Assembly (NCBI GenBank): GCA_030295235.1
Contig: AP026152.1
Coordinates: 186,001-250,000, forward strand
From: Fistulifera solaris
Lineage: Eukaryota
DNA length: 64,000 nt
Reading direction: 5' to 3'
Positions 22,893 through 64,000 of this stretch are shown piece after piece (the first letter of the stretch is position 1; each line of letters starts with the position of its first letter). The position numbers and the translations under genes were made by a program. The notes under the pieces were generated by a model, which was not told the DNA's origin, ran no database searches, and worked only from the letters and a program-made list of their open reading frames with translations.

Positions 22893-23890
22893 CCTAGTGC
22901 AATAAAAAATTAAGCGCGTTAATTTTCTCGCGTTGAAGATTTTCGCAAAAGCGAAAACGGAGACGACGCAATGGGAAATGTTAGACAAGACAACCTTGTT
23001 ATCGCATACTTTAAGCTTTCCATTTGAATTATAAGTTCGTTTTCCTATCTCACTGCACACGTCAAAGGGAATTGGCGTTAATCTGCCGAGTATATAGCCG
23101 ACGCGACACGAAAGACCCTCGTGCCTTTCACAAAAATGATGCGCGCTCTCGCGTGGGTAGTCTGTGCTTTCGTTCTATCACAACAATCCACTGCTTTCTC
23201 ATCTAGACCGTGCTTTTCTCGAGTCGAAACACGGATCTTTGCTACTGCCGACGAAGATGGCAATGAACTCTTGACGAAAGAGGCCGCCTTGCGTGAAAAA
23301 GCCAATAGATTGGAAGAGTCTCTCAAGGCGAATCGACCCTCTGACCTGGACTTTGACGTATCTATTCGCCGATCGACCAGGGTCACACCCGATGTCACCT
23401 CTCCTTCCGAGCGAAGTCCGTACTACGGCAAGTTGACCGCATCTTTTTGAACGATGGCTACAGCGAAGTCGTTCGTCACACAAGTACGATCGAGCGACGA
23501 TGATAACGAATATTTGTTGCTTTCGATGAAATTTGTGTTGCCATCGATTGAACAAATTCGTAGGATTTTGTTCGCTGAAGAAACTATCACCGCTAAGGAG
23601 GTCTAGTAGATTTGCAAGCATCGACATGGAGAAGTCTCTGTTCTCGGCGAGGTTTTCGGCTGGGTTTCGTGCCGTCGGTCGAGCGACGACGATAACGAAT
23701 ACTTGTACTTGGCTCGGTCGATCTTGTGTTGCTCTATTTCAGCCCTGAAAAAGTGTCGATGGTACAGGTGCACTTCGATATTAGAAGGAAGGACAGCAGT
23801 AATGGAAGAAAGCGAGTTGAAGTCGTTTTCTTGAAACAGTTTATAGCTGTTTTTCTTGCTGTCGGCGAACTCATTGGGAAGCCTAGAGTA
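22893..23890 (+). pseudogene. Degenerate, internally deleted and rearranged duplicate of the gene at 25678-26400 and its upstream region
   Basis: Near-identical upstream DNA and N-terminus MMRALAWVVCA..LKANRP; then multi-base deletions, frame loss and a repeated block (CGAGCGACGAtGATAACGAATA near 23490 and 23680). Confidence 0.8.
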
Positions 23891-24176: not shown

Positions 24177-25144
24177 CTACCTTGTGGTGAGAATTTCCCT
24201 TTTGACGTCGCCATAACCATCTCCACCGTCATTGTTCTTTTCTTCAACTACATTTAAAAAAAGTGCCAGTGCATCCTGCTTTGCATGCCTTTTAATGAAT
24301 TCATCAACCTGATTGAGACAGTAAAGGTCAAGGTCGATCTTGCTACGTACAATGTGGTCAAATTCTTGCCAAGTCTCACGGTGTCTGTGACAAGCAGAGT
24401 AGAACAGCGAATGGCAAGCGCTCATCAGAGAAGTGAAAGCGCCGATAGAAAGGGCACATCATCTCTACGCCACTTACCGGATATCAAAGCAATATTCTTT
24501 GTATTTTTTTCAATCGTAACTGTATGCGCCGCGAACGTCGTCACGGGATACCACTCCGTGGAGTTCTCGCTTGCAAATCGCTTGATTGCATCATGAAGTT
24601 CTCGCAGAAACAAAAGGCCGTCAGCTGCATCTGCAGCGACCTGCATCATGACGTGAAATACCGCTGGAACTCGGGTCCACACCAGTGTTCGTCTCTCGGC
24701 GAGACGCTTGTTGGACGGAAACAACAGCCTGCCGGTTCTTAGAGATACGATTTCGGTGTAATACGCGTGCAAATTCACGACACGCCAAATTCTTTCTGGC
24801 CTGAATCTAGTGCACGTCTCGGACGGAGGGTCGAATTCGAATTCGATCAAATCACCAACTTCAAATGGTCGCGCGTAATAGAAGAAGATGTCGTCGAAAT
24901 GCTTCCTGTACACATGAAAGCTATGACGAACAGAGACGACGATGGAAGTGCATGTTACGAGGTAAGGAGCCGTAGAAACAAAGTCAAGGAGCCAAGCAAT
25001 CGAAAGCGTGACGAAGAAATAGTAAAGGTCGCCCATCCCCACGAAAACGCAAAAACAATCCAGCGACTTTCGAGAGCCAAGTTCACCACGTTCTGACGTT
25101 ACAAGGCGGGGCAGTAAGTCATTTGTAGTGAATGAGTCTGTCAT
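24177..25144 (-). CDS. Miniature MscS-like protein, copy 1 (membrane-anchored type); intron 24477-24385; indel in the A-run near 24505
   Basis: YYARPFEVGDLIE..WRV..YTEI..SNKRLA..VWTRVP MscS beta-domain pattern; exon 2 HRETWQEFDHIVRSK. Confidence 0.75.
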
Positions 25145-25677
25145 CTTTACTTCCGCTTGCGCAACGAGGAAAGATAAATGCCTTGCTGCTTGTTGCAAGA
25201 ACTGTGAGATTGTGAAACATTTTTTCTTCAAACGTGATTAATTACGAAACGAAGAGTATCGTTTTGAAAAAGATTTTGATGTGAATGGATTGCTTTATTA
25301 TTTACTTTGTTCGTCGTCGCACGACGACGTCTCGTCTGCGCGTGCGTGCGCGGTGCGGTGCTGGTGCGCGCAAATGTGTGATGCGTTACCCCTAACCTTA
25401 CCGTAAATACGAGTCTAGTGCGAAAATAATATTCTCGCGTTGAACATACCAATAGGTACCTGGTACTGTGCTGTCGTACCGACAAAAAAGCGGAAACGGA
25501 GACGACGCAATGCGGGCAATGGGAAATGTTGGACAAAACAACCTTGTTATCGCATAGTTGAAGCTTTCCATTTGAATTATAAGTTCGTTTTCCTTTCTCA
25601 CTGCACACGTGGAATTGGCGTAAATCTGCCGAGAATTAACCGACACGACACGAAAGACCCTCGTGCCTTTCACAAAA

Positions 25678-26400
25678 ATGATGCGCGCTCTCGCGTGGGT
25701 AGTCTGTGCTATCGTTCTATCACAACAATCTACTGCTTTCTCATCTAGACCGTGCTTTTCTCGAGTCGAAACACGGATCTTTGCTACTGCCGACGATGAT
25801 GGCAATGAAGTCTTGAAGAAAGCGGCTGCCTTGCGTGAAGAAGCCAATCGACTGGAGGAGTCTCTCAAGGCGAATCGACCCGCTAAGGGTTCCAACATCC
25901 GTCCACAACCCAAAGCACCTCCAATGACATCGTACAAGTCCATGAAAGATTCGACCTGGACCTTGACGTATCGATTTGCGGATCGACCAGAGTCGCGCGA
26001 TGTCACGTCTCCTTCCGAACGAAACCTTTACAATGGCAAGTTGACCGTCATCTTTTTGAACGATGGCTACAGCGAAGTCGTTCGCCACGAAAGTACAAAT
26101 GTGAAAGTCCAGAAAGTATGGGGATGGGATGTGGAACGATCGAGCGACGATGATAACGAGTATTTATTGTTTTCGGTGGATTTTGTGTTGCCATCGATCG
26201 GCAAAGAGCGTTTCTATTTTCAAGCCCGAAAAAGTGTCGATGGCATAGGGAACATTTCGCTCGCGGAAGGAACTATAACAGTCAAGCAAGACGTAGTGGA
26301 TTCGAAAGCATCAAGATGGAGTCTCTTTTCTCCACGAGGAATTTTGGCCGAATTTCGGGCTGTCGGCGAATTCATTGGGAAACCGAGTACAGCGTTTTGA
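25678..26400 (+). CDS. Probably plastid-targeted protein of unknown function
   Basis: Intact ORF of about 240 aa; signal peptide followed by STAFSS, short coiled coil, beta-rich domain (VQKVWGWDVE, YLLFSVD). Confidence 0.75.
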   Translation: MMRALAWVVCAIVLSQQSTAFSSRPCFSRVETRIFATADDDGNEVLKKAAALREEANRLEESLKANRPAKGSNIRPQPKAPPMTSYKSMKDSTWTLTYRFADRPESRDVTSPSERNLYNGKLTVIFLNDGYSEVVRHESTNVKVQKVWGWDVERSSDDDNEYLLFSVDFVLPSIGKERFYFQARKSVDGIGNISLAEGTITVKQDVVDSKASRWSLFSPRGILAEFRAVGEFIGKPSTAF

Positions 26401-27304
26401 TCAAAAGAACATACAGAGCTTACGTTTTAAAACTGCGTTGCAGCTATGGAAGTGCCAAGCGTGAAAATCACAAAGTCAAATCACTGAATTATTAATGATA
26501 TGTAGACTATATATTTTTCACAAAAGTAGGAGGACTCGTATGGATGTTTTGGCGCGACCCTCAGAAGTCGACGTGCATCTGCGGTTGCTGTTCACTTCTG
26601 ACCAACAGCAAACCTACTGAACGAGGACTTTACATCTGCTCAGATCATTGAAAGCCTTCATTTTTGCTCCACTGTCACCTTGCTCCTTGTCTTCCTCGAT
26701 ACTTGACTTTTCCCACTTATCATAGAGTTCGAGCTTCATTCGTTTTAACAAGCGCTCATCATGCACCAACCGGAAACCCTTTGTTTTTTTTATCGAAGAG
26801 CTTCGAGTAAGACGCATCTGATTTTGCCTTCGATTTTGCAAAATATTGAATTGCCTGTACAAGTCGCACTTTGCTGCTCAAGACAAGAGCATACTCTTTC
26901 CATGACTGGCGGTGCCTGTCAAAGAGCAGAATGGAAGAGCGATGAAGCGTGACGTGTGAGAAATGTCATTTAGCAACTCAAGAAAGTCCAGGTTCATCGC
27001 TTATTCACGTACCGAATATTTATGCAATACTCCTTGTTTTCTTTAACAGCATGTTTGTCAAACGGTTCCACAGCAAACCATTCACTACTGGTACGTTCAG
27101 CATAACGAGAAATTATATCATTTGCTACAGGTAGCAATGAACAAAGTTTTAATTCGCACAAACACAAAACAACAAGGAAGTCTAACGAGGAATGCGAGTG
27201 AGGGTGACTCTAGTATTATTCAGCAATTAATTTGCGTGCATCTTCGTTTTCATGCGTCGAAGGCATATACATCAGGATTGTAGTTATCCGTACGAACGGA
27301 TACT

Positions 27305-28062
27305 TTACTCCGACTCGGGAAACAGATCGACCAATTCAGCAAATCCCGGCGGCAAAATGAGGTCGGCTCCGTTTTGTTGCATGGTTTGACTCAAAATCGC
27401 TTCGGTATGCGGTTTACCCAACGCCGCTTGCGCGGCCGCCGCTTCCGGTGTCGTGACTCCGACACCACTGCATCCCGCCGCGACCGCCGCCGTAATGTCA
27501 TCGGGGTATCGCCCACCAACACGACCGACCGCGACGGTTTGACACCGAGTAATGCGCAGACGCGCAATACGGGCGTCGGATCCGGTTTGCTGGGTCCATC
27601 TTCCATACAATAAGTAGCCGAAATCAGTGATTCCAATCCATGTTCGTGAAGAAATTTCATACAATCCGCACGCGGCCGTCCCGTGACAATGCCAATGCCC
27701 GGTTTCGATCGTTGGTGCAATGCGAGCAGAGTCTCTTTGTGTGGAATCAGTGTTTCCAGCGTACACAATCCCGGTGTATCCCCGTGTCCTTGATAGTATT
27801 GTTCAAACGTTTCTGTCACTTGTTCCAGCGTAATCTCTTGCTTGTTGGGTAATGTACTATACTCTTGAATGAGTCGATGCGACAGTTGCCAATCATCGTT
27901 GGCGTTGCCGCGTCGTTTCATTTCCGTGACAATGTCGTCATCGACGGCCGTCGCACCGTACGTGTGACACGTCTTGACAATGGCGGCCCGGTAGGATTGG
28001 GAAACTTCCGCAAGGACGCCGTCCATGTCTAATAAGAGTGTTGTGTATTTCGGAGACGACAT
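27305..28062 (-). CDS. HAD-superfamily subfamily IA hydrolase (TIGR01548-like); indel near 27503
   Basis: LLLDMDGVLAEVSQSY, ANDDW, IVTGRPR, KPDPTP, VGDTP|DDI after frame repair. Confidence 0.8.
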
Positions 28063-28564
28063 TGTGTGTTGATTGTTCTTGCTGGCTGTCACGCTAACGC
28101 AGAGACTCGACCCGAAAATAAAGAGAAGGAAATACAAGGAACAAGTAACGAGAGGTGTTGACTGGAAAGACATGAAATTCTTTCACCGCTTTATTGCAAC
28201 GAAATGAGCCGATCGGCGTGTCCGTGGCCGTCCATCATCGTCGTCGCGTCGAAATAAGAAAAAAAAAAAACTCGTGCCGACGATGTCGTTGTGACGCATG
28301 ACGTTTTCAGTCTAAACCATTTCTGTCGTACCGATTAATTATTCCGCGTGGAAGTTCACTTTTTTATGAAGTAGATTATGTACGATATTAGTCTGTCTTC
28401 GTCCGTATTGGTAGATGCGAAGCACGCAAACATCCATCAAAACACGACAACATCAACAAGACTTCAACATAGAAAAAGCAACCCTTGCTACTTTCTTATT
28501 ATTTGCAATCGTCTATAATCCTATCAACTCTTTCTTTCATCAACTTCACAATACTCTCGTCAGA

Positions 28565-29044
28565 ATGATGTCAAATACGCGCTTCGTTCTGTTCCTGATG
28601 ATGACATGGCATTTCGGACACTCCTTTCTCGTCGCTCCTCAACAGCCGACAACGACACGACTCTTCGGAATGGCGCAACCGGAAACACAAATCAAGACCA
28701 AAACTACGGTCAAGACAGCGAGCAAACAAAAGGTCGAAATCAAAAAGACATTCAAGACGGACGATCCCGTCCAAAATCGCGACGATGACTTTCAAGATGC
28801 GCCCATGTACAAGGTCATGTTGTTGCGCGATGACGATTACGATCAAGAACATGTTGTGACGCGATTGTGTGCCATCTTGGATGATATGGATGAAGATCAG
28901 GCGGCGACAGTATGGAAACAGGCCATGGCGGCCGGACAAGCCATGTGTGGCAAGTATCCGTTTGAGCGGGCGGAATTGTTCAAGGAACAGTTGTTGCGAT
29001 CGGATCCCATGATTTTTTGTGATCTGGTAGAAGAGAATGCTTGA
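28565..29044 (+). CDS. clpS: Plastid-targeted ClpS-like Clp protease adaptor
   Basis: PMYKVMLLRDD..EHVV..L..A..GQAMCGKYPFERAE; signal peptide followed by GHSFLV. Confidence 0.75.
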   Translation: MMSNTRFVLFLMMTWHFGHSFLVAPQQPTTTRLFGMAQPETQIKTKTTVKTASKQKVEIKKTFKTDDPVQNRDDDFQDAPMYKVMLLRDDDYDQEHVVTRLCAILDDMDEDQAATVWKQAMAAGQAMCGKYPFERAELFKEQLLRSDPMIFCDLVEENA

Positions 29045-29189
29045 GGGAGAAGGGGTTGGCGAGAATATTGCACTCCTTTTTTCTGGTGTTACCGCAACCG
29101 TGCCGCAATCTACATTATTAGCGTGTGTAAGTTTATTTGATAAAGAAGAAACAAACAAAAGATTAAACAAACAGTACAGGGAATGATCA

Positions 29190-30726
29190 TTAGTCGCTGC
29201 TTTTCGTCGACGAGATATCCAATGTCAGCAAGTCGTTGCTAAACACATCACCCGGAAGGCGTCCTCCAAACACGAGCAGACGCGAACCATCCAACACGGC
29301 CCGATGTCCGACGCGTGCCTCTTCACTGCCTATCTTGGGTCCTTTCGTCCACTCCCACGTTTCCGTATTCAATAAGAACGAATCCCCAAACACCACATCG
29401 TTCTCGTCGTTGGGATCCCATCCACCGTAGATACAGATCGTGTCATCGTGCCACACGAATGCCACATGGCCCGTCCGAGGACACGGCGGCGACCCCTTGG
29501 TTTGCACATTGCTCCATTCCCACGTCGTACGTTCCAAGACGTGCACACTATTGAAGCATTGTTCGGCATCGTTGCCGCCAAATACTACCATTTTGGTTCC
29601 ACACGCCGTGGCCGTGTGATACGACCGCGGACGGGGGCCGTTCCTTGAATCGTCGGTGTATGCCAGACCCAACGGAGGGTATCCAAGACGACAACTTTTT
29701 GTAAAAACTTGTTGCCGGAAACACCGCCCCACACGACGAGTTCGTGGCCCAGCAAGGTGGCCGTGTGACCACTCCGACCTTTGGGAATGTCGCCCGACAC
29801 CGACGGTGGATACCATACCATGATTTCGGTATCCAAGACCATGACGGGATGGACGATGTGGGATTTGCCGGTTTTGTCGTTGGTGCATTCACCGCCAAAG
29901 GCAATCAACAACTGACGTTCCGGCAAATACGTGGCGGTGTGCCACTGTCGTTTCCAGCCATCGCCATTGCTGAGTGGTTGGATCCAGCGGGTGCCATTGA
30001 AGAGATGCAAATCGTCCAGTGTCAAAGGTGTTGACGTCTCGGGGGACAGCGTTTGTCCTCCGTACACGAGAATGCGATTCGGGCCCAAGCACGTCATCGT
30101 ATGTCCCCAGCGTGGACACGGTGGCGGATACGAAGGTGGTAACAATAAGTCGTCGCCGAGTGAAACGCGCGTCGGAATGGGAGGTTGCGGCGAATGATCC
30201 GATTGCACCGACGTGTCGGGACTGGGTTGCTGTTGCAACAGTTCTTGGACGGGTTGTTTCGGGTGTGACGGTGTGGAGACGAAGTTCTGTGAAGGTGATG
30301 GCTCTTCCTCATCGCCCGTCAGTGTCGCCTGAGTTTGCGAAAGATCCGGTTGTCCTAGTAGAGTGTTGCTCGGATGAGTCGTTGCATTCGAGAAACGATG
30401 ATTCGAGACTTCTTCGATGCTATTGTTGGAGGAAGAAGACGAGTCTTCGAGGCGCACGCGCTTGTTACAACTGTCAATGTCATCCTGTAAAGGACGTTGT
30501 TTCGGAGTAATCTGGTTGATCTTCGTCGTAATCTCCACTGTCTCTTTGGAAGCGACAGCAGAATTCGAATCGATGGTATGCACACGCAAAGTACCCGAAA
30601 AGTTGGTCAATTGCAAAAGAATCGTTTCCTTGCTTTGTTGCGAAAAGAAACGGCTCCGGTCGGATCGTTCGGAACCAGCGTAAAGGCCACGCCGCCTAGA
30701 GAAAGCTGCAGCGTCGGAGAAGTCAT
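29190..30726 (-). CDS. Kelch-repeat protein; indels near 30643 and 29635
   Basis: Repeated PRWGHT/RSGHTA/RSYHTA/RTGHVA..GG..W Kelch blades spread over overlapping ORFs; start inferred. Confidence 0.8.
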
Positions 30727-31004
30727 GTCGTTCTCTGTGATGCTTGTTTTTCGATGAAACAATGACTCGAAGAGCAATGAGAGGAATGGCAACGAAAAGG
30801 AATGACACTCGTCATTCGACGGAGTTTGAATGGAATGAATTTGAGTGCGCGCACGCCACGCTTTATTACTTGGGGAAATTTGAAAATAATAGCGCGCCGG
30901 AATGGCCGCGAATGGTTTCGCGCCTTTTTATTTGTGACGCAGATGTCCGAAGTCCGAAATCATCATTATCCGACAGTTTGGAAACGCCCATCCCAGAACA
31001 AAAT

Positions 31005-31016
31005 CCATTCACATCA
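31005..31016 (+). promoter_or_regulatory. CCATTCACATCA element shared by the MscS-like genes (also 25277-25288 on minus, 32173-32184, 33597-33608, 38194-38205)
   Basis: Exact 12-mer in sense orientation 121-149 nt upstream of the ATG of five paralogs. Confidence 0.6.
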
Positions 31017-31137
31017 TTCCTTCTTTGAATCATCGGCAAATATCACGATTGGAGATTTCTTTTCAATATGTCTCACAAGTTCACGCCAGCAACAATCGTC
31101 AACGCACGCGATTGTTCATTTTATAGCGGAATTCAAG

Positions 31138-31807
31138 ATGACAGACAAGCTCGCCGCAATCAAACGCCCGTGGCCCGTCCTTCGTTTTCTCAAGGAAACT
31201 CTCGACGCCGCATTCACTTATCCCACCATAATGCATGTATGTGAGGTCGGCGATCTGATCGGAATCAACACTCCTGGACTTGTTCTCAGCACGCAACACG
31301 CCTACCGTGTCGAGTGCATCACCTGGATGCACACATCCCTCGTGTGCTTGGCCACTGGTGAGCGGCAACGTCGCCACAATTCCCGTATTTTCAATATTAA
31401 TGGCGTGAACAAGTGGAGTCGATCTCCAGCAACGTTTGAAGTCGTGCTGCCTGTGGGTGACAATGGCGGCGTTTCATTGGAATTTTTCAAGGAAAAGATT
31501 GAGCAATTTGCCAACGACAACCCCGGCGAATGGCGTGAAGTGAACACGTTCGATTGGTACCAATTGCCGGAAGGGCATCGCGTTTTGATTCAGTAAGTCG
31601 GATAGACAGTGGGGATTTGCGATGGCGTACATACTTGCCTGACTCTTTCTTTTATTCTTCTCTTTCGCTAGACACCACGAAAAGTGGGGACAACTTAAGC
31701 TCGTCTTGAAGAGCAGAGAAAAGCTGATTGCTTACTGCAAGCAGCTCACTGAAGAGCTTCGCCCGGAAGATGCTTCTCAAGACTTTGCAGTCACTGTTAG
31801 TCCCTAG
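31138..31807 (+). CDS. Miniature MscS-like protein, copy 2 (no transmembrane segment); intron 31593-31671
   Basis: HVCEVGDLI..YRVECITWMHTSL..TGE..HNSRI..WSRSPATF..IEQFANDNPGEW; exon 2 HHEKWGQLKLVLKSREKL; intact after splicing. Confidence 0.72.
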
Positions 31808-32321
31808 AGTTTAGGCTTGACGATGGTTCTCGTCTACGGGCTCTAAATTTCCGCTCATCTATAAAATAGGACTCATGGAATCCATTATACCTAACTTAAC
31901 TACTAGAGTACACGTAAGCCATTGTTCTTGTCTAAAGTAGGCTTTAATGCATCTTTAACAACTCGAACGATTGGAATGGGACGGAGGGTTCCACGTTCCA
32001 CCGAAAACACTGCTGATCCGGCTAAATCTATCTATGCTTGACGATGGTGCCCATGACGTCTTTAAGGTTAAGGGAACGCATCAAATATTCGCGCGCACCA
32101 TCGCGCACCGCAGCACGCAGCGTGCGCCGCACAGACGTCGTCGTTCGACACGCACTCCGTTCACATCAAAATCCATTCACATCAAAATCGTTTCATATAA
32201 TGATACTCTTCGTTTCGTAATTCATCACGTTTGAAGATGCGAACAATGTTTCACAAACTCACACTTCTTTTAACAAGCAGCAATGCAGTAATCTATCTTC
32301 CTTGCGCAAACGGAAGTAAAG

Positions 32322-33338
32322 ATGACAGATTCATTCACTGCACATGACTTACTGCCCCGCCTCGTAACGTCAGAACGTGGTGAACTTGGCTCTCGAAAGT
32401 CGCTGGATTGTTTTTGCGTTTTCGTGGGGATGGGCGACATTTACTATTTCTTCGTCACGCTTTCGATTGCCTGGCTACTTGACTTTGTTCCTACGACTCC
32501 TTACCTCGGAATATGCACTGTCATCGTCGGGTGGGTACAGGGTAACATTTCTTTGTACAAGGAGTGTTTCAACAAGATCTTTTTTTATTACGCGCCGCCA
32601 TATGAAGTTGGTGACTTGATCGAAGTCTGTTACGGATCCAATCCTCCGACCGAGACGTGTACTAGATTCAGGCCAGAACGAATCATGCGTGTCGAAATAA
32701 TTCGAACGCTGACCACCTGGGTCAGCTCTTTGGAAGACGGCAGGTGGACGTGTCTGTCCAACGAGCTTCTCACCGATAGACAAACACTGGTGTGGTCTCG
32801 AGTACCTGCGGTATTTCGAGTCATGATGCAGGCCATTGCGGATGCAGCTGACGGCCTCTTGTTTCTGCGAGAACTCCATGCGGCGATCAAGCGATTTGCA
32901 AGCGAGAACTCCACGGAATGGTATCCGGTAAAGACGTTCGCGGAGGACGCAGTTATAATTGAAACTGGGTACAAAGAATATTGCTTTGATATCCGGTAAG
33001 TGGCTTAGAGGTGGTGTGCCTTTTGTAACGGCACTTTCGCTTCTCTGATCTGCGCTTGCCATTCGCTGTTGTACTCTGGCTTTCACAGATACCGAGAGAC
33101 TTGGCGAGAATTTGACCACATTATACGTAGCAAGATCGACCTTGACGTTGACTGTAGTAATCAAGCGGAAAAGTTTTACAGAAGTCGTGCAAAGCGGGAT
33201 GCAGTGGCACTTCCTAATGTAGTCGAGGAAAAGAACAATGGCAGTGAAGATGGTAATGGCGAAATGACGGACAACACCGAGGGGAACAATGAGATGGAGG
33301 GTCATCGCCTGCTTTATTATCGCATTTTGGTTAAATAG
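32322..33338 (+). CDS. Miniature MscS-like protein, copy 3 (membrane-anchored type); intron 32996-33088
   Basis: YYAPPYEVGDLIE..MRVE..TT..SNELL..VWSRVP; exon 2 YRETWREFDHIIRSK; intact after splicing; inverted paralog of copy 1. Confidence 0.78.
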
Positions 33339-33717
33339 ACTCGCTTGATTTGTTGATGGCTGCAAGTATTAGCAACAAAATCCCCCAACATAAAAATCAA
33401 TTTTGTTAAATATTTTTCCTTTTGAAGTTGGACGCAATAGCCGAATCTTGATTTTTGCACTTTTGTTTCGTAAATCGTTACTGTTCGGTTAGCGGAATGT
33501 CTTACATTGATACTTGTCAACATAGCTTCTTCACGACTCCTCACGTCGAGGAGTCACGTTTCACGTATTTTCGCTCGCTCACAAAAAAAAACCGATCCAT
33601 TCACATCATTATCATTAGTTACTCCGTATCATTTCAAAATAATGTTTCACAGACTCACTCTTCCTGTAACAAGCAGCAAGTCAGTTGTCTTTCCGCGTTG
33701 CGAAAGCGGAAGTAAGG

Positions 33718-34713
33718 ATGACAGAGTCATTCGCTGCAAATGACGACGACTCACTGCCCCGCTTACTGACGCCACGACGTGGTGAAGTTTCCTTCGACAA
33801 TTTTTTGCTTGTTTCTGCGCTTTTATGGGGATCGACACCATCTTTTATTCCATCTTCATTTTGTGGATTGCCTGTCTACTTGACTTTGTTCCTCCGGATT
33901 TCTTCTTCGCAGTATGCGCGGCAATTGTCGCCTTGGCACATCGTAGAATCCCCGGATACCAGGAGCATTTTTACGACATCTTCTTCTATTACTCGAGACC
34001 TTACGAAGTTGACGATGTGATTGAATTCAATCCTCTGTCTGTGACGAGTTCTAGACCCCAGAAGAAAAGACTGTGGCGTGTCGTGAGAGTCCACGTGTTT
34101 TTCACCGAAATCACAACCCTCTGTGGCCTCGACGCGAACCATTATTTTCCGTCCAATAAGAGTCTCGCCACGAGACATATACTTGTTTGGACTCGAGTTC
34201 CAGCGATATTTCAGGTTGCAATACAGGTCGATGTCGATGCAATTGACGGCCTCTTGTTGCTACGAGAACTCCACGAAGCAATTGAGTGGTTTGCGAATTT
34301 CAACTCGAACAAATGGCATCCCGTGAAGTCGTTTGTAGAGGATGCAGTAACAACTGAAAATGATTACTATGATTATCGCATTGATATGGAGTAAGTGACA
34401 AGGAGATGATGTGTCTTTTGTCTTTGCACTCTACCGTCTCTGATATGATATTGTTGGGCCTCTCCTCTCTTGGGGTTAACACAGACACCGAAAGACGTGG
34501 GGAGAATACGAGTGCGCTAGCTTAGTTGAGCTTATCCTTTACTGTCGCAAACTAAAGGAAAAGTTCATTAAAAGTCCTGTAGGACGGGATGCAGTGGCAC
34601 CCTTCAACGGTGCTAGACACAATAACGAGAAATGTGGAGATGACACGAAAGAAGTGAAGAGTCTTGAGATCAGAAAGTATCATGACCTTGACTTTCGCAT
34701 CTTTGTTGTATAG
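33718..34713 (+). CDS. Miniature MscS-like protein, copy 4; indel near 33795; intron 34391-34484
   Basis: MTESF..LPRLLTPRRGE N-terminus; YYSRPYEVDDVIE..WRVV..FTEI..PSNKSLA..VWTRVP; exon 2 HRKTWGEY. Confidence 0.72.
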
Positions 34714-35018
34714 AGCTACAACGTATTGGATTATTTTGAGATGATAAGCGGTAGGCTTTGTAATCGGTATAACATCAAGTGCTATGTAAATGTTGAAGTA
34801 TAGAAACAATGGTCAAATGCTGAACGTTAAAGTCTTCGATTTATTGAAGAGTAAGTATATTCCTACGAAACGACTTTTGTTCCGCGTACCATTACTGTCT
34901 GGTTTACACAATTTATCATACCGGGATTAGTCAAACTAGTTTGTGCAAGACTCACGACGGGTCACGATTCCTTCATGCATTCTCTGCGTTTGAAATATTT
35001 AGAAACTCTAGACTAGAC

Positions 35019-35691
35019 CTACGGGAACACAGTGATTGCAAAGTCATCAGAAGCATCTACCGGGCGAAGCTCTTCCGTAAGCTCCTTGCAGTAAGCAATC
35101 AACTTTTCTCTGCTCTTCAAGACTAGATCCAGCTGTCCCCACTTTTCGCGGTGTCTATAGCAAAGGAAGAAACGAAAGGAGTCAGGGAAGCATGCACGCC
35201 ATCACAGATCATCATCTCTCGACTTACTGAATCATAACACGATACCCATCAGGCGTTGGATCACAATAAGACGTGCACGCCACGAACCATTCGCCAGGGT
35301 TGTCGTTGGAAAATTGCCGAATCTTGCTCTTCAGCAAAGAATCCCAGAAAATACCGTCGGTAGTATTCACCGGCACCGGAAGCATGATTTGAAACCTTAC
35401 TGGGCAATAACTCCAGCAAGTCATCGATCTGTAGCGGCAAAGACTCGAATTGTGCCAACGAACCCGCTCACCGTTGGCCAAGCAAGTGACCTCCGTGTAC
35501 ATCCAGGCGATCTTGTCGACGCGGTACACGTTTAGCGTGTTGAGGAAAACGCTATCGTTAGGCTGATCGAACTCGATAAATTCGCCAACCTTGCAAGGAT
35601 GTCCGTTATAGAAGTCAATGGCGTCGAGACTATCCCGGAAAAAGCGAAGAATGAGCCGGGGAAAAGTGATTGCGGCGGACTTGTCTGTCAT
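35019..35691 (-). CDS. Miniature MscS-like protein, copy 5 (no transmembrane segment); intron 35227-35155
   Basis: HPCKVGEFIE..YRVDKIAWMYTEV..NGE..HNSSL..IRQFSNDNPGEW; exon 2 HREKWGQLDLVLKSREKL, nearly identical to copy 2. Confidence 0.72.
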
Positions 35692-36096
35692 CTTTACTTC
35701 GATTTGTTCTGAGAAATGAACGTGCGTTCGCGGTGATGATTGTTGCTGGGGTAAATTTGTGAGACATTTTGCAAAGAAACCGTAAGTTTTAGTTTTATTC
35801 GTGATATGTTTCGTTTCAAAGCAAGATGAATGCGTTTTGCGACGCGACGAGCAGTTTTTTTATACTGTATTTGCCGAAAACCTTTGAGTCCCGTGAAATA
35901 GACGCACGACTCGTCGTCCTCGAAGAAACTGCACCGCAAAAACGCAAAAAAAAAACAATCCATTCATGTCGTTTTCATTTGCAAACAGCACTCTTGCCTT
36001 CCAATAATAGTCTTTCAAAATGTCTTATAATCTTTCCCCAGCGATCATTCACATCGCCAGCGCTAGTTCGTTTTTTCAGCGTCAACGAAAGCGACG

Positions 36097-37341
36097 ATGA
36101 TGACCGACACTTTGCCCGCTGCAAATAACTCTACGAGCCGTCCAGAAGTTCCCTTCGGACGAAAACTGGCTGCTTTCTTCTTTCAGCTGATCTATTTGGA
36201 CTATTTCTTTCTCCTCACATGGATCTTTCTCTATTGCGCCTTTGGCATTATTCCGTCTGCCGTGTTTTGGACCATTTTCATCATCTTTGCGATTCTCCTC
36301 TATGCCTTGCTGATCGGTGTATACTACGCCAACCATTACGATCGCCATCCCTTCTATTACCAGCTGCTTCCTTACGAGATTGGAGATTTGGTGGAAATTG
36401 ACCCGACCGAAGACAGTGTCTATCTCAAGATGGAGAACGTTTACCGTGTCAAATATATCGATTTCGTGTGCACGCATTTCGAATTCTTGAATCGCCCCGG
36501 GGTGATGAATTGGCCCAATGAAGCTCATCTGAACAGTCGCTTTATTATCTGGAGTAAGCGGGCGGCGATATTTCACATCATTCTACCGATTTCCCGTGGA
36601 AGTACGTGATGTCTCCGTGTTGCTGGCTCGTCTTTACGAGAAAGTTGTGCAGTACGCCAACGACAATTCTCGCGAATGGCGGAGCGTGACTTTGCCTATC
36701 ATCGATGCCATTACGGAGGACGGGAAGTACGCGGATTATTGCATTGAGATTCAGGAAGTCGAGTAAAGATATCGTACTTGTTGCGTATGCCCTCTTCCTT
36801 CTCTGACGTGTGATATCTCGCTTCGGTAATTCACAGACATTGCGAGTTGTGGCGTCAATATGACTGCGTCGTGGAAAGCAAAGATAAGTTGAGCAAATAT
36901 TTAGAAGGTCTAGAGCAAGAAGGAGTTTTCAAGAGCGGAAGCACTTTTGAAAACGAGAAAGATAGTAGCGACGATATTGAGAAAAGTCGTGACAACGAAG
37001 GCCGAAAGAGCAGTTACAACCACGATGCCTACATAGTTGATGAGGACGAATTTATAAAGATAGCCGATGACGAAGCAGACGTAGAAAACCAAATTGGCGG
37101 AACATCTTTGAAAACCATTGCTCAAGCTGAAAGTGTTGATGGCGAAGGACAGTATGATGGCAAGAGCCACTGCAATGGCGTTAGCTGCAACGACGATTAC
37201 AACATTGACTACACCGAACACGATACACTAAAGAAGCAGGAGATCTTGAGAACCAAATGGGTGATGAAGCATCAACTATCAAATTTTCATTCGATCTTAG
37301 ACAAGAAGTCTTTTTTGTGCGGTTGCAGTTGGTCGATCTAG
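36097..37341 (+). CDS. Miniature MscS-like protein, copy 6, with a long acidic tail; indel near 36590; intron about 36763-36836
   Basis: Strongly hydrophobic N-terminus; LPYEIGDLVEI..YRVKYIDFVCTHF..WPNEAHL..WSK; NDNSREW..YCIEIQ in the shifted frame; exon 2 HCELWRQYDCVVESK. Confidence 0.68.
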
Positions 37342-38339: not shown

Positions 38340-39332
38340 ATGACTGAAACATCCGCCGCAAGCTCACCGTGCCCGCCGATGTTGCCCGAACGTTGTGAAA
38401 TTTCCTTCCGACAATCGTTTGCTTGTTTGTGCACTTCCGCGGGGATAGACGACATGTTTTACTTCAGCGTCACGTTCACCATTGCCTTTTTACTTGGCTT
38501 TGTTCCACCGGATCTCTACTTTTCCGCGTGCTGTCCCGTTGTCACCCTTTTATGGTTGAAAGTCCGTCGTTACAGGGAACATTCCGACGCTTTCATCTTT
38601 TACTACCTGCGACACCCTTATGAAAAAGGTGATCTGGTTGAATTTGACTGCCCGCCTGTGACAATGGAAGGTCCGCATGAGGAACACACTTGGGGGTGTT
38701 GTGGATTTCGACTTGTATTATACGGAACTGGTCTCAGTGAGATTCAGCTTGAGAAAATATACATCCAACAAAAGCCTCGCCAAGAAACGAATCAAGAACT
38801 GGAGTCAAGTGCCAGTAATTTTTAAGGTCTTTTTCGAGGTCCCTGTGGACACCGTTGACAGCCTCTTATTACTGAAAGAATTACATGCAGATATTGGGCG
38901 GTTTGCGAAAAATAGCCCTCTCGAATGGTTTCCCGTAAAAACATTTGTTGAAGAGGCAGTTAAAATTGAAAATGAATACAATGCATATTGTATTGAGATC
39001 CAATAAGTCGCGTAACGATGGAAACATGCCTCGAGTGTTTGAGATTCAAATCTGAAATTTGTGACGCTTCTTTCCTCTTCCATTACTCCACATCTTACAG
39101 ACATCGCGAGACATGGAATGAGTTCAATCTCGTTTTGTGCAGCAAAGCCCAGCTAGTCCTAGAATGCATGGAGCTGAATGAGAATCTTCGCGAAGGACTT
39201 GCAAAGCGGTATGCAACGCCCACAGCTGACGAGGACGTCAGCATGGATCGTGATATTGGCGATATCAACAACGAGGAGGGCGTCCAAAAGAGGGAGGATA
39301 AGCATCACAGTTGTTATATCTTTGTTGGATAG
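38340..39332 (+). CDS. Miniature MscS-like protein, copy 7 (possible pseudogene: donor reads AT rather than GT at 39003); indel near 38692
   Basis: YLRHPYEKGDLVEF..VV..YYTELV..SNKSLA..NWSQVP..KNSPLEW..YCIEIQ; exon 2 from 39101 HRETWNEFNLVLCSK. Confidence 0.68.
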
Positions 39333-63395: not shown

Positions 63396-64000
63396 ATGAC
63401 AGAAACGTCCGCTGCAATGCCGCGTCGCCCCAACTCGCCCGGCCTTCTCCGCGATTACCACCGCCAGCTTGTGTCTTTCCTTTTTGATGTCGCCGTCATA
63501 CGTCATATCCGCATGTGTGTTCTTAGCGAAAAAGTCTACTTTTTCCGTCTCTGTAACCAGCAGTCTCTTCGCAGTTGCGATAGGTAGTTTTCTGTGGACG
63601 TTTACCGACGGCACTTTTTCGTGGTTCCCTTACTTTGCTCCGCAACGTCCTTATGACGAAGGTGATTTGATCGAAATAGACCCTATCGAGCCCTGTATTA
63701 GCCCCTGTAAAAGAAAAAACCTGGCGTGTTGTCCTCTGTAATTCCATTCGTACGGATCTCAGGAACATTTCCAGCGGTGTGTACGTAAGCTGGCCCAACG
63801 ATGGTCTTGCGAAGTGTCGATTAATTTATTGGAGTCGTCGAACCGAAACGAAATTTCAAATTGTTTTACTGGTTCCAGAACTTACATGCAACGATCGACT
63901 AAAGAAATTTCATGGAAAAATTATGCATTTTTTAAATGAGAACTCTTGCGAGTGGTTTCCGCTTGATACCGTTCACGGACAGTCTCGTCACGGTGAAAGA
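63396..64000 (+). CDS. Miniature MscS-like protein, copy 8, 3'-truncated by the window edge; indels near 63541 and 63718
   Basis: MTETSAA start as in copy 7; RPYDEGDLIEID..TWRVV..RTDL..SG..WPNDGLA..YWSR..FLNENSCEWFP across three frames. Confidence 0.68.

Follow-up and report, generated by a model that had tools for sequence, protein, structure and literature searches.

Uneven divergence of an inverted pair of putative MscS/MSL10-like genes in the diatom Fistulifera solaris: two replacement patches, apparently old, and a short tract of probable gene conversion

The closest fold matches of the proteins described here are the plasma-membrane MscS-like proteins MSL10 of Arabidopsis and Flycatcher1 of the Venus flytrap (PDB 8tdl, 8tdj, 8jwe and 7n5d), which ranked at the top for both structural models. 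What these proteins and the diatom proteins have in common is a core made up of the final pair of membrane helices plus the beta and alpha-beta domains. The PDB chains of MSL10 contain 734–741 residues, whereas the diatom family proteins contain 220–330 residues with only two membrane helices; the diatom proteins further differ in having an extra long C-terminal helix and no direct Pfam match. E. coli MscS and YnaI have the pore helix, beta and alpha-beta fold in common with them (Foldseek E values of 1e-5 to 1e-4). In comparisons of sequences and models only, identity with MscS and YnaI was 8–17%, the diatom proteins had a single outer helix where those channels have at least two, and no glycine/alanine-rich pore helix was present. 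TcMscS of Trypanosoma cruzi is a protist MscS-like channel cut down to two membrane helices, encoded by a single gene in contrast to the tandem cluster of the diatom. Tandem gene families commonly show asymmetric divergence after duplication together with short-tract ectopic gene conversion, and this locus appears to match that pattern, with an early burst of replacement followed by constraint and with short stretches homogenised between inverted neighbours.

Copies 1 and 3 belong to a clustered family of short MscS/MSL10-like genes in Fistulifera solaris, at least nine copies of which were located by tblastn inside the window, the whole 64-kb stretch of DNA that was analysed. Copy 1 (FisN_14Hh094) extends over 24177..25144 on the minus strand with its ATG at 25144, and the deposited protein P0003 matches its translation. 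In the conserved frame it consists of exon 1 (24478-25144), an intron (24385-24477) and exon 2 (24177-24384). Copy 3 (32322..33338, plus strand) has an intact 307-residue reading frame comprised of exon 1 (32322-32995), an intron of 93 nt (32996-33088, GTAAGT..CACAG) and exon 2 (33089-33338). The two copies are inverted. Fistulifera solaris is an allodiploid (hybrid) diatom with two subgenomes, H and L; the window copies are designated c1H and c3H, and their L homeologs are c1L (P0002) and c3L (P0001), the latter assigned to copy 3 by sequence and one metagenome contig, not by synteny. Some family members were without any membrane helix.

The identity of the family was evaluated by profile and by fold. 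The A1 family profile matched four distinct sequences in the PDB, all of them MSL10, with a best E value of 3.7e-5, and profile positions 39-204 aligned to MSL10 522-676, a region that takes in the pore helix and both the beta and the alpha-beta domains. PF00924 (MS_channel_2nd), the beta-domain signature of the MscS superfamily, gave no match in the four window proteins at E≤10 and none in P0002 at E≤0.01. The same family was detected in 19 of the 29 scanned profile relatives at E≤0.01, with 16 of those at or above the curated cut-off of 20.2 bits. AlphaFold (AF2) models with mean pLDDT of 79.6 and 80.6 both matched AtMSL10, Flycatcher1, YnaI, MSL1 and MscS in Foldseek; the top matches were all of the MscS family with probability 1.00, the best E values were 1.5e-9 and 1.5e-6, and each model had 52 matches at E≤0.001. 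The models show a pair of membrane helices together with a beta and an alpha-beta domain, and exon 2 encodes a long helix at the C terminus. Profile and fold together support the assignment of copies 1 and 3 as putative members of the MscS superfamily, in the MSL10/Flycatcher1-like branch.

Two segments in which the copies differ strongly were placed on this fold. Patch 1 of copy 1 (codons 56-85; 24890..24979, minus strand) lies in model helix 58-91 and aligns to MSL10 536-565. In copy 3 the same codons (32487..32576, plus strand; pLDDT 90-94) are modelled as helix 58-74, a break at residue 75 and helix 76-90, and residue 74 is a glycine. Patch 2 covers codons 119-150 of copy 1 (24695..24790, minus strand), the ancestral-like type, and codons 121-152 of copy 3 (32682..32777, plus strand; pLDDT 94-97), the derived version. 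An earlier note on this DNA had assigned the patches by position to the pore helix and the beta-domain strands, and the MSL10 profile match and Foldseek results bear this out, patch 1 being the predicted pore-lining helix and patch 2 predicted beta-domain strands. MSL10 F553 aligns with R73 of copy 1 or Q73 of copy 3, and MSL10 G556 with F76 or I76, the alignment being approximate in this helix. We take F553 and G556 to be the hydrophobic constriction and glycine kink of the MSL10 pore-lining helix. In the profile alignment neither the gate nor the kink residue was conserved in copies 1 and 3, so that channel function of the diatom proteins is unproven. Among the PDB titles, 'G556V' supports a role for G556 in MSL10.

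The copy 1 and copy 3 proteins were 70% identical over 218 residues (tblastn) and the repeat arms were 84-86% complementary, results which do not agree with the description of the pair in the earlier note as near-identical outside the patches. The patches themselves are real. Both quoted pairs of peptide strings were present, at residues 63-85 and 120-150 of copy 1 and in the same columns of copy 3. Among 203 aligned codons there were 56 amino acid differences, with a maximum of 21 in any 32-codon window (permutation P=0.0001) and a minimum of one in any 45-codon window (permutation P=0.0002). Mismatches at codon positions 1 and 2 were clustered to a degree reached in none of 5000 shuffles, while no clustering of third-position mismatches was detected by the same kind of scan (P=0.37). 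DNA identity was 0.878 upstream, 0.970 in codons 11-55, 0.700 in patch 1, 0.859 in the middle segment, 0.583 in patch 2, 0.874 in the C block, 0.849 in the intron and 0.816 in exon 2. Identity outside the patches was thus 82-88%, with near-identity confined to codons 11-55 (131/135 nt). The patches had also been described as almost wholly replaced, but their DNA is still homologous, with alignment z scores of 10.4 and 7.4 relative to shuffles.

The near-identical 5' block lies at 24980..25114 (minus strand) in copy 1 and at 32352..32486 (plus strand) in copy 3. Identical third positions run for 35 codons (permutation P=0.012), and third-position mismatches numbered 3/45 in the block compared to 35/158 elsewhere (P=0.017). 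Amino acid differences in the block were 1/45 between c1H and c3H, 5/45 between c1H and c1L, and 6/33 for both c3H–c3L and c1L–c3L. Residue 26 is K in c1H and c3H and Q in c1L, c4 and c7; residue 33 is V in c1H, c3H and c3L and D in c1L. Grouping of the sequences by subgenome was seen at only one residue of the block. From these sequence comparisons, ectopic conversion appears to account for the 5' block alone and not for the patches, with copy 3 probably the donor and copy 1 the recipient. Divergence along the gene was not uniform, and a recombination signal was present. The earlier note had proposed patchwork conversion; the signal agrees with that proposal for the block, but conversion is not suited as the cause of the patches since their silent divergence equals that of the flanks. 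Third-position divergence was 15/62 in the patches and 20/96 in the flanks (P=0.70), and synonymous differences were likewise similar (11/44 in the patches and 19/66 in the rest, P=0.83).

The same silent sites bear on the possibility that copies 1 and 3 are old paralogs homogenised by gene conversion along most of the gene, with the patches as the islands that escaped. The 5' block indicates that conversion takes place at this locus, and the amino acid distance between copies 1 and 3 in the patches (18/30 and 21/32) resembles that between copies 1 and 4 (22/30 and 16/32), as do third positions in patch 2 (10/32 and 11/32). However, silent divergence in the patches is no greater than in the flanks and falls below the level between copies 1 and 4 in the rest of the gene (31/84). 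Third positions in patch 1, of which 5/30 differ between copies 1 and 3, favour the pairing of these two copies (copy 4 odd at nine, copy 3 at three, copy 1 at two), and the flanks, intron and upstream DNA are 12-18% diverged, unlike the 3% of the fresh tract. Unconverted islands are considered improbable.

Replacement differences appeared to be in excess locally. By the NG86 method the patches had dN 0.56 and dS 0.30 whereas the rest had dN 0.09 and dS 0.37, and the ratio of replacement to silent differences (Nd:Sd) was 56:11 in the patches versus 21:22 in the rest (Fisher P=2e-4). Under a maximum likelihood codon model, omega was 0.32 outside the patches and 2.99 within them (LRT P=0.014), in line with a local replacement excess, although only nominally. 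Taken separately, patch 1 had omega of 6.2 (LRT P=0.014) and patch 2 had omega of 2.1, which was not significant (P=0.21). The replacement proportion of the patches showed no significant excess over the silent rate of the rest (56/142 vs 19/66, P=0.16). Because the patch boundaries were set after viewing the sequence, support for omega above 1 is no more than nominal, and these tests come to about P=0.1 when roughly corrected for some seven windows.

The polarity of the changes was examined with copy 4 as the outgroup. In patch 2, nine amino acid changes were derived in copy 3 and one in copy 1, and changes at nucleotide positions 1 and 2 numbered 18 and 4, respectively; at third positions copy 3 was odd at six, copy 1 at one and copy 4 at seven. 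The copy 1-type patch 2 was the nearer for 85 of 110 family representatives, and in this patch copy 1 is closer to copy 4 than to copy 3. The concentration of both third-position and replacement changes on the branch of copy 3, together with a somewhat raised dS in patch 2 (0.45), is compatible with a divergent paralog, now lost or located elsewhere, having donated the copy 3 patch 2 through ectopic conversion before the subgenome split. No donor was seen in the window, however, the best match to this patch among the other family proteins in the collection scored 37 compared to 157 for P0001, and the raised dS is not significantly different from the rest. Such an import seems unlikely.

An equally unlikely explanation is relaxed constraint or decay, with the genes drifting or dying and the patches their least constrained parts. 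The frame breaks in copies 1, 4, 6 and 7 are in its favour, as are the variability of the patch 1 segment across the family (2.47 bits) and the lack of a significant replacement excess over the silent rate. Patch 2, however, is the best-conserved segment of the family (1.97 bits, other segments 2.21-2.53), and copy 3 retains in it the family-invariant V124, T132 and N147 in addition to an intact frame and a confident model. Moreover, both patch types are kept between the subgenomes, and the omega estimates are above 1 rather than at 1.

The timing of the changes was evaluated with c1H, c1L, c3H and c3L, the homeologs being compared as protein only. Differences fixed between the paralogs were found at 29/62 sites in the patches, 8/86 in the rest and 0/33 in the 5' block. 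Differences between the H and L homeologs occurred in 12/124 site comparisons in the patches and 24/238 elsewhere (P=1.0), and in patch 2 they numbered 2/32 in each homeolog pair; continued turnover of patch sites between the subgenomes was sought, and change in the patches was no quicker than elsewhere. The ratio of fixed to post-split differences was 29:12 in the patches and 8:15 in the rest (P=0.008). The many patch sites fixed between paralogs and the lack of acceleration after the split point to an old episodic burst that is now constrained. Continuing diversifying selection of the kind found at recognition or conflict loci, to which the earlier note had likened these hypervariable patches, would fit a local omega above 1 and a clustered, multi-copy, fast-evolving family, but is made very unlikely by the equal H/L change inside and outside the patches. 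On balance we favour an old episodic burst under later constraint, that is, ordinary functional divergence after duplication.

The proposed history begins with an inverted duplication that would have given rise to copies 1 and 3 and would be approximately twice as old as the split of the parental subgenomes. Between these two events replacements would have piled up in two short stretches, in both lineages for the pore-lining helix of patch 1 and mainly in the lineage of copy 3 for the beta-domain strands of patch 2, which are usually best conserved. Replacement would have outrun silent change in the patches, with silent sites diverging no more than elsewhere. After the split, each patch version would have been constrained as strongly as the remaining protein, and in a later, separate event a tract of approximately 110-135 nt spanning codons 11-55 would have been copied between the copies inside the H subgenome. 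The mosaic may thus consist of two layers, old episodic functional divergence and recent short gene conversion, for which the allodiploid genome serves as a built-in clock that makes the burst older than the subgenome split and the conversion younger.

The fold, the placing of the patches on it, the clustering and timing of the replacements and the uniformity of silent divergence are direct results; we infer that selection lay behind the burst, and that its effect was to retune the pore or gating hinge along with the contacts between helix and beta domain or between subunits. If the burst was selected, the predicted channels of the two paralogs may differ in gating or conductance, or may no longer co-assemble. 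A more speculative and rather doubtful extension is that the two patches evolved together as a single redesign of how the pore helix meets the beta-domain ring. Channels of copy 3 would then be orthogonal to those of copy 1, with no co-assembly, a different gating hinge and a different pore lining. The cluster would be a birth-and-death family from which raphid diatoms obtain diverse two-helix MscS-type channels of miniature size, and the helix-less members possibly soluble modulators of the cytoplasmic cage.

It is scarcely credible that the patches are an artefact produced by a mistake in assembly or alignment or by a compensated frameshift: pyrosequencing was used for an earlier genome of Fistulifera solaris, according to a preprint (bioRxiv 10.1101/2021.11.10.468027), homopolymer trouble is evident in copy 1 and a +2 diagonal in patch 2 gives 10/15 matches, but that diagonal merely equals the 95th percentile of shuffles and the same two patch types are present in the independently deposited P0001 and P0002. 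Contigs of a DNA run matched copy 3 over 31712-32393, 32420-32870 and 32975-34800 with no other letters, although this run is probably from the source sample and hence not independent. The only contig that an environmental run contributed over copy 3 was of the L type.

The homopolymer in question is a run of seven A at 24504..24510 (minus strand) that shifts the frame of copy 1 by -1 just ahead of the intron, and exon 1 is 667 nt in copy 1 compared to 674 nt in copy 3. Every covering contig (n = 3; one each from X1, X3 and X4) had an extra letter in this run, and no read-derived contig reproduced the 1-nt frameshift of the window. The homeolog P0002 stays in frame across the site. In contigs of X3 and X4, RNA-like runs from one study, position 24384 was joined to 24478 with 93 nt skipped and GT..AG on the strand of the gene; this joint was absent from the contigs of the DNA run. 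The intron is genuine, at least in the copy 1 type.

Copy 1 (24177..25144, minus strand) and copy 3 (32322..33338, plus strand) of the inverted paralogs showed 70% amino acid identity by tblastn, and the arms of the repeat were 84-86% complementary. The DNA identity was 0.878 upstream, 0.970 over codons 11-55 (the 5' block), 0.700 in patch 1 (codons 56-85), 0.859 in the middle, 0.583 in patch 2 (codons 119-150 of copy 1, 121-152 of copy 3), 0.874 in the C block, 0.849 in the intron and 0.816 in exon 2. The 56 amino acid differences in 203 codons were clustered, with a 32-codon window maximum of 21 (P = 1e-4) and a 45-codon window minimum of 1 (P = 2e-4). Mismatches at codon positions 1 and 2 were also clustered, the observed value being reached in 0 of 5000 shuffles, and third-position mismatches showed no clustering (P = 0.37). 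These scans are independent of the patch boundaries drawn in the earlier note, and the unevenness described there holds. The quoted patch strings are present; the near-identity claimed for the rest of the genes does not agree with the overall identities. A compensated frameshift was rejected as the origin of patch 2, the best off-frame diagonal (10/15) merely equalling the 95th percentile of shuffles.

Estimates by NG86 were dN 0.56 (0.40-0.75) and dS 0.30 (0.13-0.57) for the patches, and dN 0.09 and dS 0.37 for the rest of the gene minus the 5' block. Replacement to silent differences were 56:11 in the patches versus 21:22 in the rest (Fisher P = 2e-4). Silent differences were alike (11/44 in the patches, 19/66 in the rest, P = 0.83), as were third positions (15/62 and 20/96, P = 0.70). 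A pairwise maximum likelihood codon model gave an omega of 2.99 for the patches (likelihood ratio test against 1, P = 0.014) and 0.32 for the rest, and by patch 6.2 for patch 1 (P = 0.014) and 2.1 for patch 2 (P = 0.21), all of these omega tests being nominal because the windows were chosen by eye. Replacement change in the patches nominally exceeds silent change. Equal silent divergence indicates that the patches are no older than their flanks, which opposes a reading of the patches as unconverted islands.

The best protein matches of the window were to the diatom Fistulifera solaris, and the window is eukaryotic. The species has been characterized as allopolyploid, its two subgenomes being Fso_h and Fso_l (H and L), with 9007 homoeologous gene pairs (PMC5935921). 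The stored protein P0003 (FisN_14Hh094) has the same translation as copy 1, and P0002 (FisN_14Lh094, 327 aa) is the copy 1 counterpart in the other subgenome, the common index 094 being read as that of an annotated homoeolog pair. P0001, an unnamed protein of 207 aa, showed 89% identity to copy 3.

With copy 4, another family member of the window, as outgroup, the amino acid changes in patch 2 comprised 9 derived in copy 3, 1 derived in copy 1 and 11 undecided, and nucleotide positions 1 and 2 gave 18 derived in copy 3 versus 4 in copy 1. The polarity of patch 1 was undecided (amino acids 3 versus 2, with 13 matching neither; positions 1 and 2, 9 versus 9). Among 110 other family representatives, the nearest type for patch 2 was copy 1 in 85 and copy 3 in 21, and for patch 1 copy 3 in 73 and copy 1 in 31. 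Across the family, conservation is highest in patch 2 (1.97 bits versus 2.21-2.53 for the remaining segments, in 69 relatives), and the invariant residues V124, T132 and N147 are retained in copy 3. Third positions in patch 2 also lean to the copy 3 branch (copy 3 odd at 6, copy 1 at 1, copy 4 at 7), so it is possible that patch 2 of copy 3 was imported from an unspecified donor before the subgenome split; no other stored family protein carries this patch, the next best score being 37 versus 157 for P0001.

The timing of the patch changes was obtained from a four-way alignment of c1H, c1L (P0002), c3H and c3L (P0001), in which all homeolog comparisons are at the protein level. Of the patch sites, 29/62 were fixed between paralogs, as against 8/86 for the rest and 0/33 for the 5' block. 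H and L differed in 12 of 124 site comparisons in the patches versus 24 of 238 elsewhere (P = 1.0), with 2/32 for patch 2 in each pair. The ratio of fixed to post-split changes was 29:12 in the patches versus 8:15 in the rest (P = 0.008), or versus 8:24 with the 5' block added to the rest (P = 1.4e-4). The 8:15 ratio indicates that the duplication has about double the age of the subgenome split, and the noncoding divergences agree with this, at 13-17% for copy 1 against copy 3 and 6-9% for H-type against L-type contigs (17/285, 14/193 and 85/979 letters). The excess change in the patches falls after the duplication and before the subgenome split, since when both versions have been retained. 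Continuing hypervariability of the patches, the tempting conflict-locus reading proposed in the earlier note on the strength of the replaced patches, is unlikely given that H and L differ no more in the patches than elsewhere.

Copies 1 and 3 differ at 4/135 nucleotides over codons 11-55. Identical third positions extended without interruption for up to 35 codons (15-49, permutation P = 0.012), and third-position mismatches were 3/45 in the 5' block versus 35/158 elsewhere (P = 0.017). Amino acid differences in the block were 1/45 between the H paralogs, 5/45 and 6/33 in the homeolog pairs, and 6/33 between the L paralogs. Such a pattern is characteristic of ectopic conversion over a short tract, here within the H subgenome and later than the split. 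Residue 26 is K in c1H and c3H and Q in c1L and copies 4 and 7, and residue 33 is V in c1H, c3H and c3L and D in c1L; the direction would be from copy 3 to copy 1, a weak hint because only these two sites bear on it. Of the two processes first offered for the patches, diversifying selection or patchwork gene conversion, conversion is seen in the 5' block, and selection has the nominal omega in its favor within the patches, where silent divergence opposes unconverted islands.

Scanned directly against Pfam, the window proteins gave no relevant match; the only one was a weak DUF7562 match (E 0.018), located on the 31135-31593 paralog. A family profile built from ten sequences retrieved 112 proteins (E ≤ 1e-3) from a set of 1.84 billion representatives. 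Many of these were long proteins matched in the C-terminal part, and PF00924, the MscS beta-domain family, was present in 19 of 29 scanned relatives. A further word-based search with the profile gave only six proteins, all or mostly from Fistulifera, and two metagenome contig scans with copy 3 and P0002 as queries returned no relative. The sole match of the profile among solved structures was Arabidopsis MSL10 (E 3.7e-5), with profile positions 39-204 corresponding to MSL10 522-676. AlphaFold models of P0002 and the copy 3 exon-1 protein (mean pLDDT 79.6 and 80.6) both matched AtMSL10, Flycatcher1, YnaI, MSL1 and MscS at probability 1.00. The family is thus predicted to comprise clustered, very short MscS/MSL10-like proteins, unrecognised by Pfam, that are putative channels. 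In agreement with the placement first made by position, patch 1 (aa 56-85) falls within model helix 58-91, the long helix that lines the pore, and patch 2 within strands of the beta domain (119-125 and 129-134 in P0002). The positions aligned with MSL10 F553 and G556 are R/F in copy 1 and Q/I in copy 3. Copy 3 has G74 and a model helix broken at residue 75, and the copy-1-type helix is unbroken. Judged from the patch positions in the MscS fold, the outcome may be altered gating, altered pore lining or insulation from co-assembly.

On balance we lean towards an old replacement burst in these duplicated mini MscS-like genes, localized to the pore helix and beta domain, probably adaptive and now constrained, with a recent short 5' conversion on top. 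The burst would have followed the duplication and preceded the split, both patch versions would have been under constraint since the split, and the conversion at the 5' end would be a later overlay. The mosaic, so read, corrects the conflict-locus interpretation. The hybrid genome dates both burst and conversion without any outgroup species, an approach reusable for other duplicated genes of F. solaris. Similarity-based counts of diatom mechanosensitive channels may miss these short proteins; one such survey reports the largest numbers in pennate diatoms (PMC11085791, section 2.7). The two natural patch variants are ready chimera material on the roles of the pore helix and beta domain in gating and assembly.

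Copy 3 consists of exon 1 (32322-32995), a 93-nt GTAAGT..CACAG intron and exon 2 (33089-33338), encoding an unbroken 307 aa, and the minus-strand copy 1 is built likewise (exon 1 25144-24478, intron 24477-24385). The 24384-24478 joint was present, with GT..AG ends on the gene's strand, in contigs of the RNA-like runs X3 and X4 of one study and absent from contigs of the DNA run X1. The joint-bearing contigs differed from the window by 14 and 17 letters (X3) and 35 and 17 letters (X4) in two aligned parts, and therefore probably derive from the L homeolog. One X3/X4 contig was unbroken across 24478-25148, which speaks, for that transcript type, against the extra intron inside exon 1 of the deposited model P0003. 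Copy 3 lies outside the coverage of the RNA-like contigs, and copy 1 outside that of the wetland metagenome run X2.

Exon 1 is 667 nt in copy 1 versus 674 nt in copy 3, a difference that includes an in-frame 6-nt gap. A run of seven A (24504-24510) throws the last 9 exon-1 codons and exon 2 of copy 1 out of the conserved frame, where P0002 reads through in frame. The contigs over this site, one each from X1, X3 and X4, all have one letter more than the window; each has L-like differences close by, and no H-type contig covers the site. At the A run 24200-24203 the deposited H model P0003 requires one A more than the window, and L-type contigs have an extra letter at 24193. The lengths of both A runs differ between window sequence, deposited protein models and contigs from the reads. 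Since the earlier F. solaris genome involved pyrosequencing analysis (bioRxiv 10.1101/2021.11.10.468027), homopolymer error is a live alternative to a true pseudogene.

In an X2 contig of L-type copy 3, 53 nt (window 32349-32401) are replaced by 21 other letters, in agreement with the short N-terminus of P0001 (MTNYCPALL...), indicating that the L homeolog lost most of the N-terminal tail before the first membrane helix. The upstream DNA of the H copies (25145-25310 and 32170-32321) is 88% identical. An L-type copy-1 transcript contig enters unlike sequence immediately upstream of the start codon, indicating that the promoter region of one homeolog was rearranged. Loose ends were seen at 25148 in X4 and, with the same letters, at 32318 in X1.

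With copy 3 as tblastn query, related sequence was found at nine window sites: copy 1 (25144-24204, minus), a relic (27113-26988, minus), copy 3 itself (32322-33338, plus), and family members at 31180-31551, 33718-34707, 36352-36775, 38340-39218 and 63625-63970 (all plus) and 35649-35284 (minus). Four of these plus-strand members were delimited at 33718-34707, 36097-37341, 38340-39332 and 63400-64000, the last truncated by the window end. Copies 4, 6 and 7 each have one apparent reading-frame change in the exon-1-homologous region (near 33790, 36600 and 38730). The inverted pair 31135-31596 (plus) and 35227-35694 (minus), stored as P0005 (196 aa) and P0008 (152 aa), is without both membrane helices and has an MTDK start directly before the beta domain; these proteins look like 'cage-only' MscS-like proteins. 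Downstream of both genes there is an exon-2-like stretch (repeat I5, 31655-31797 and 35029-35171, 87%).

A direct duplication (22968-23886 and 25516-26387, spacing ~2.5 kb, blocks 84-95% identical) carries a neighbouring gene without assigned function. The second unit is followed by copy 2, a truncated channel-like relic (26759-27209, minus) with the C-terminal part and exon-2-like frame only. Over 25528-33381, contigs of run X2, a 2020 wetland metagenome, include overlapping ones of two kinds, with identity to the window of at least 99% and of 90-95% (11 and 41 differences, for example, at 27580-28018), suggesting a close relative with both subgenomes in the wetland habitat.
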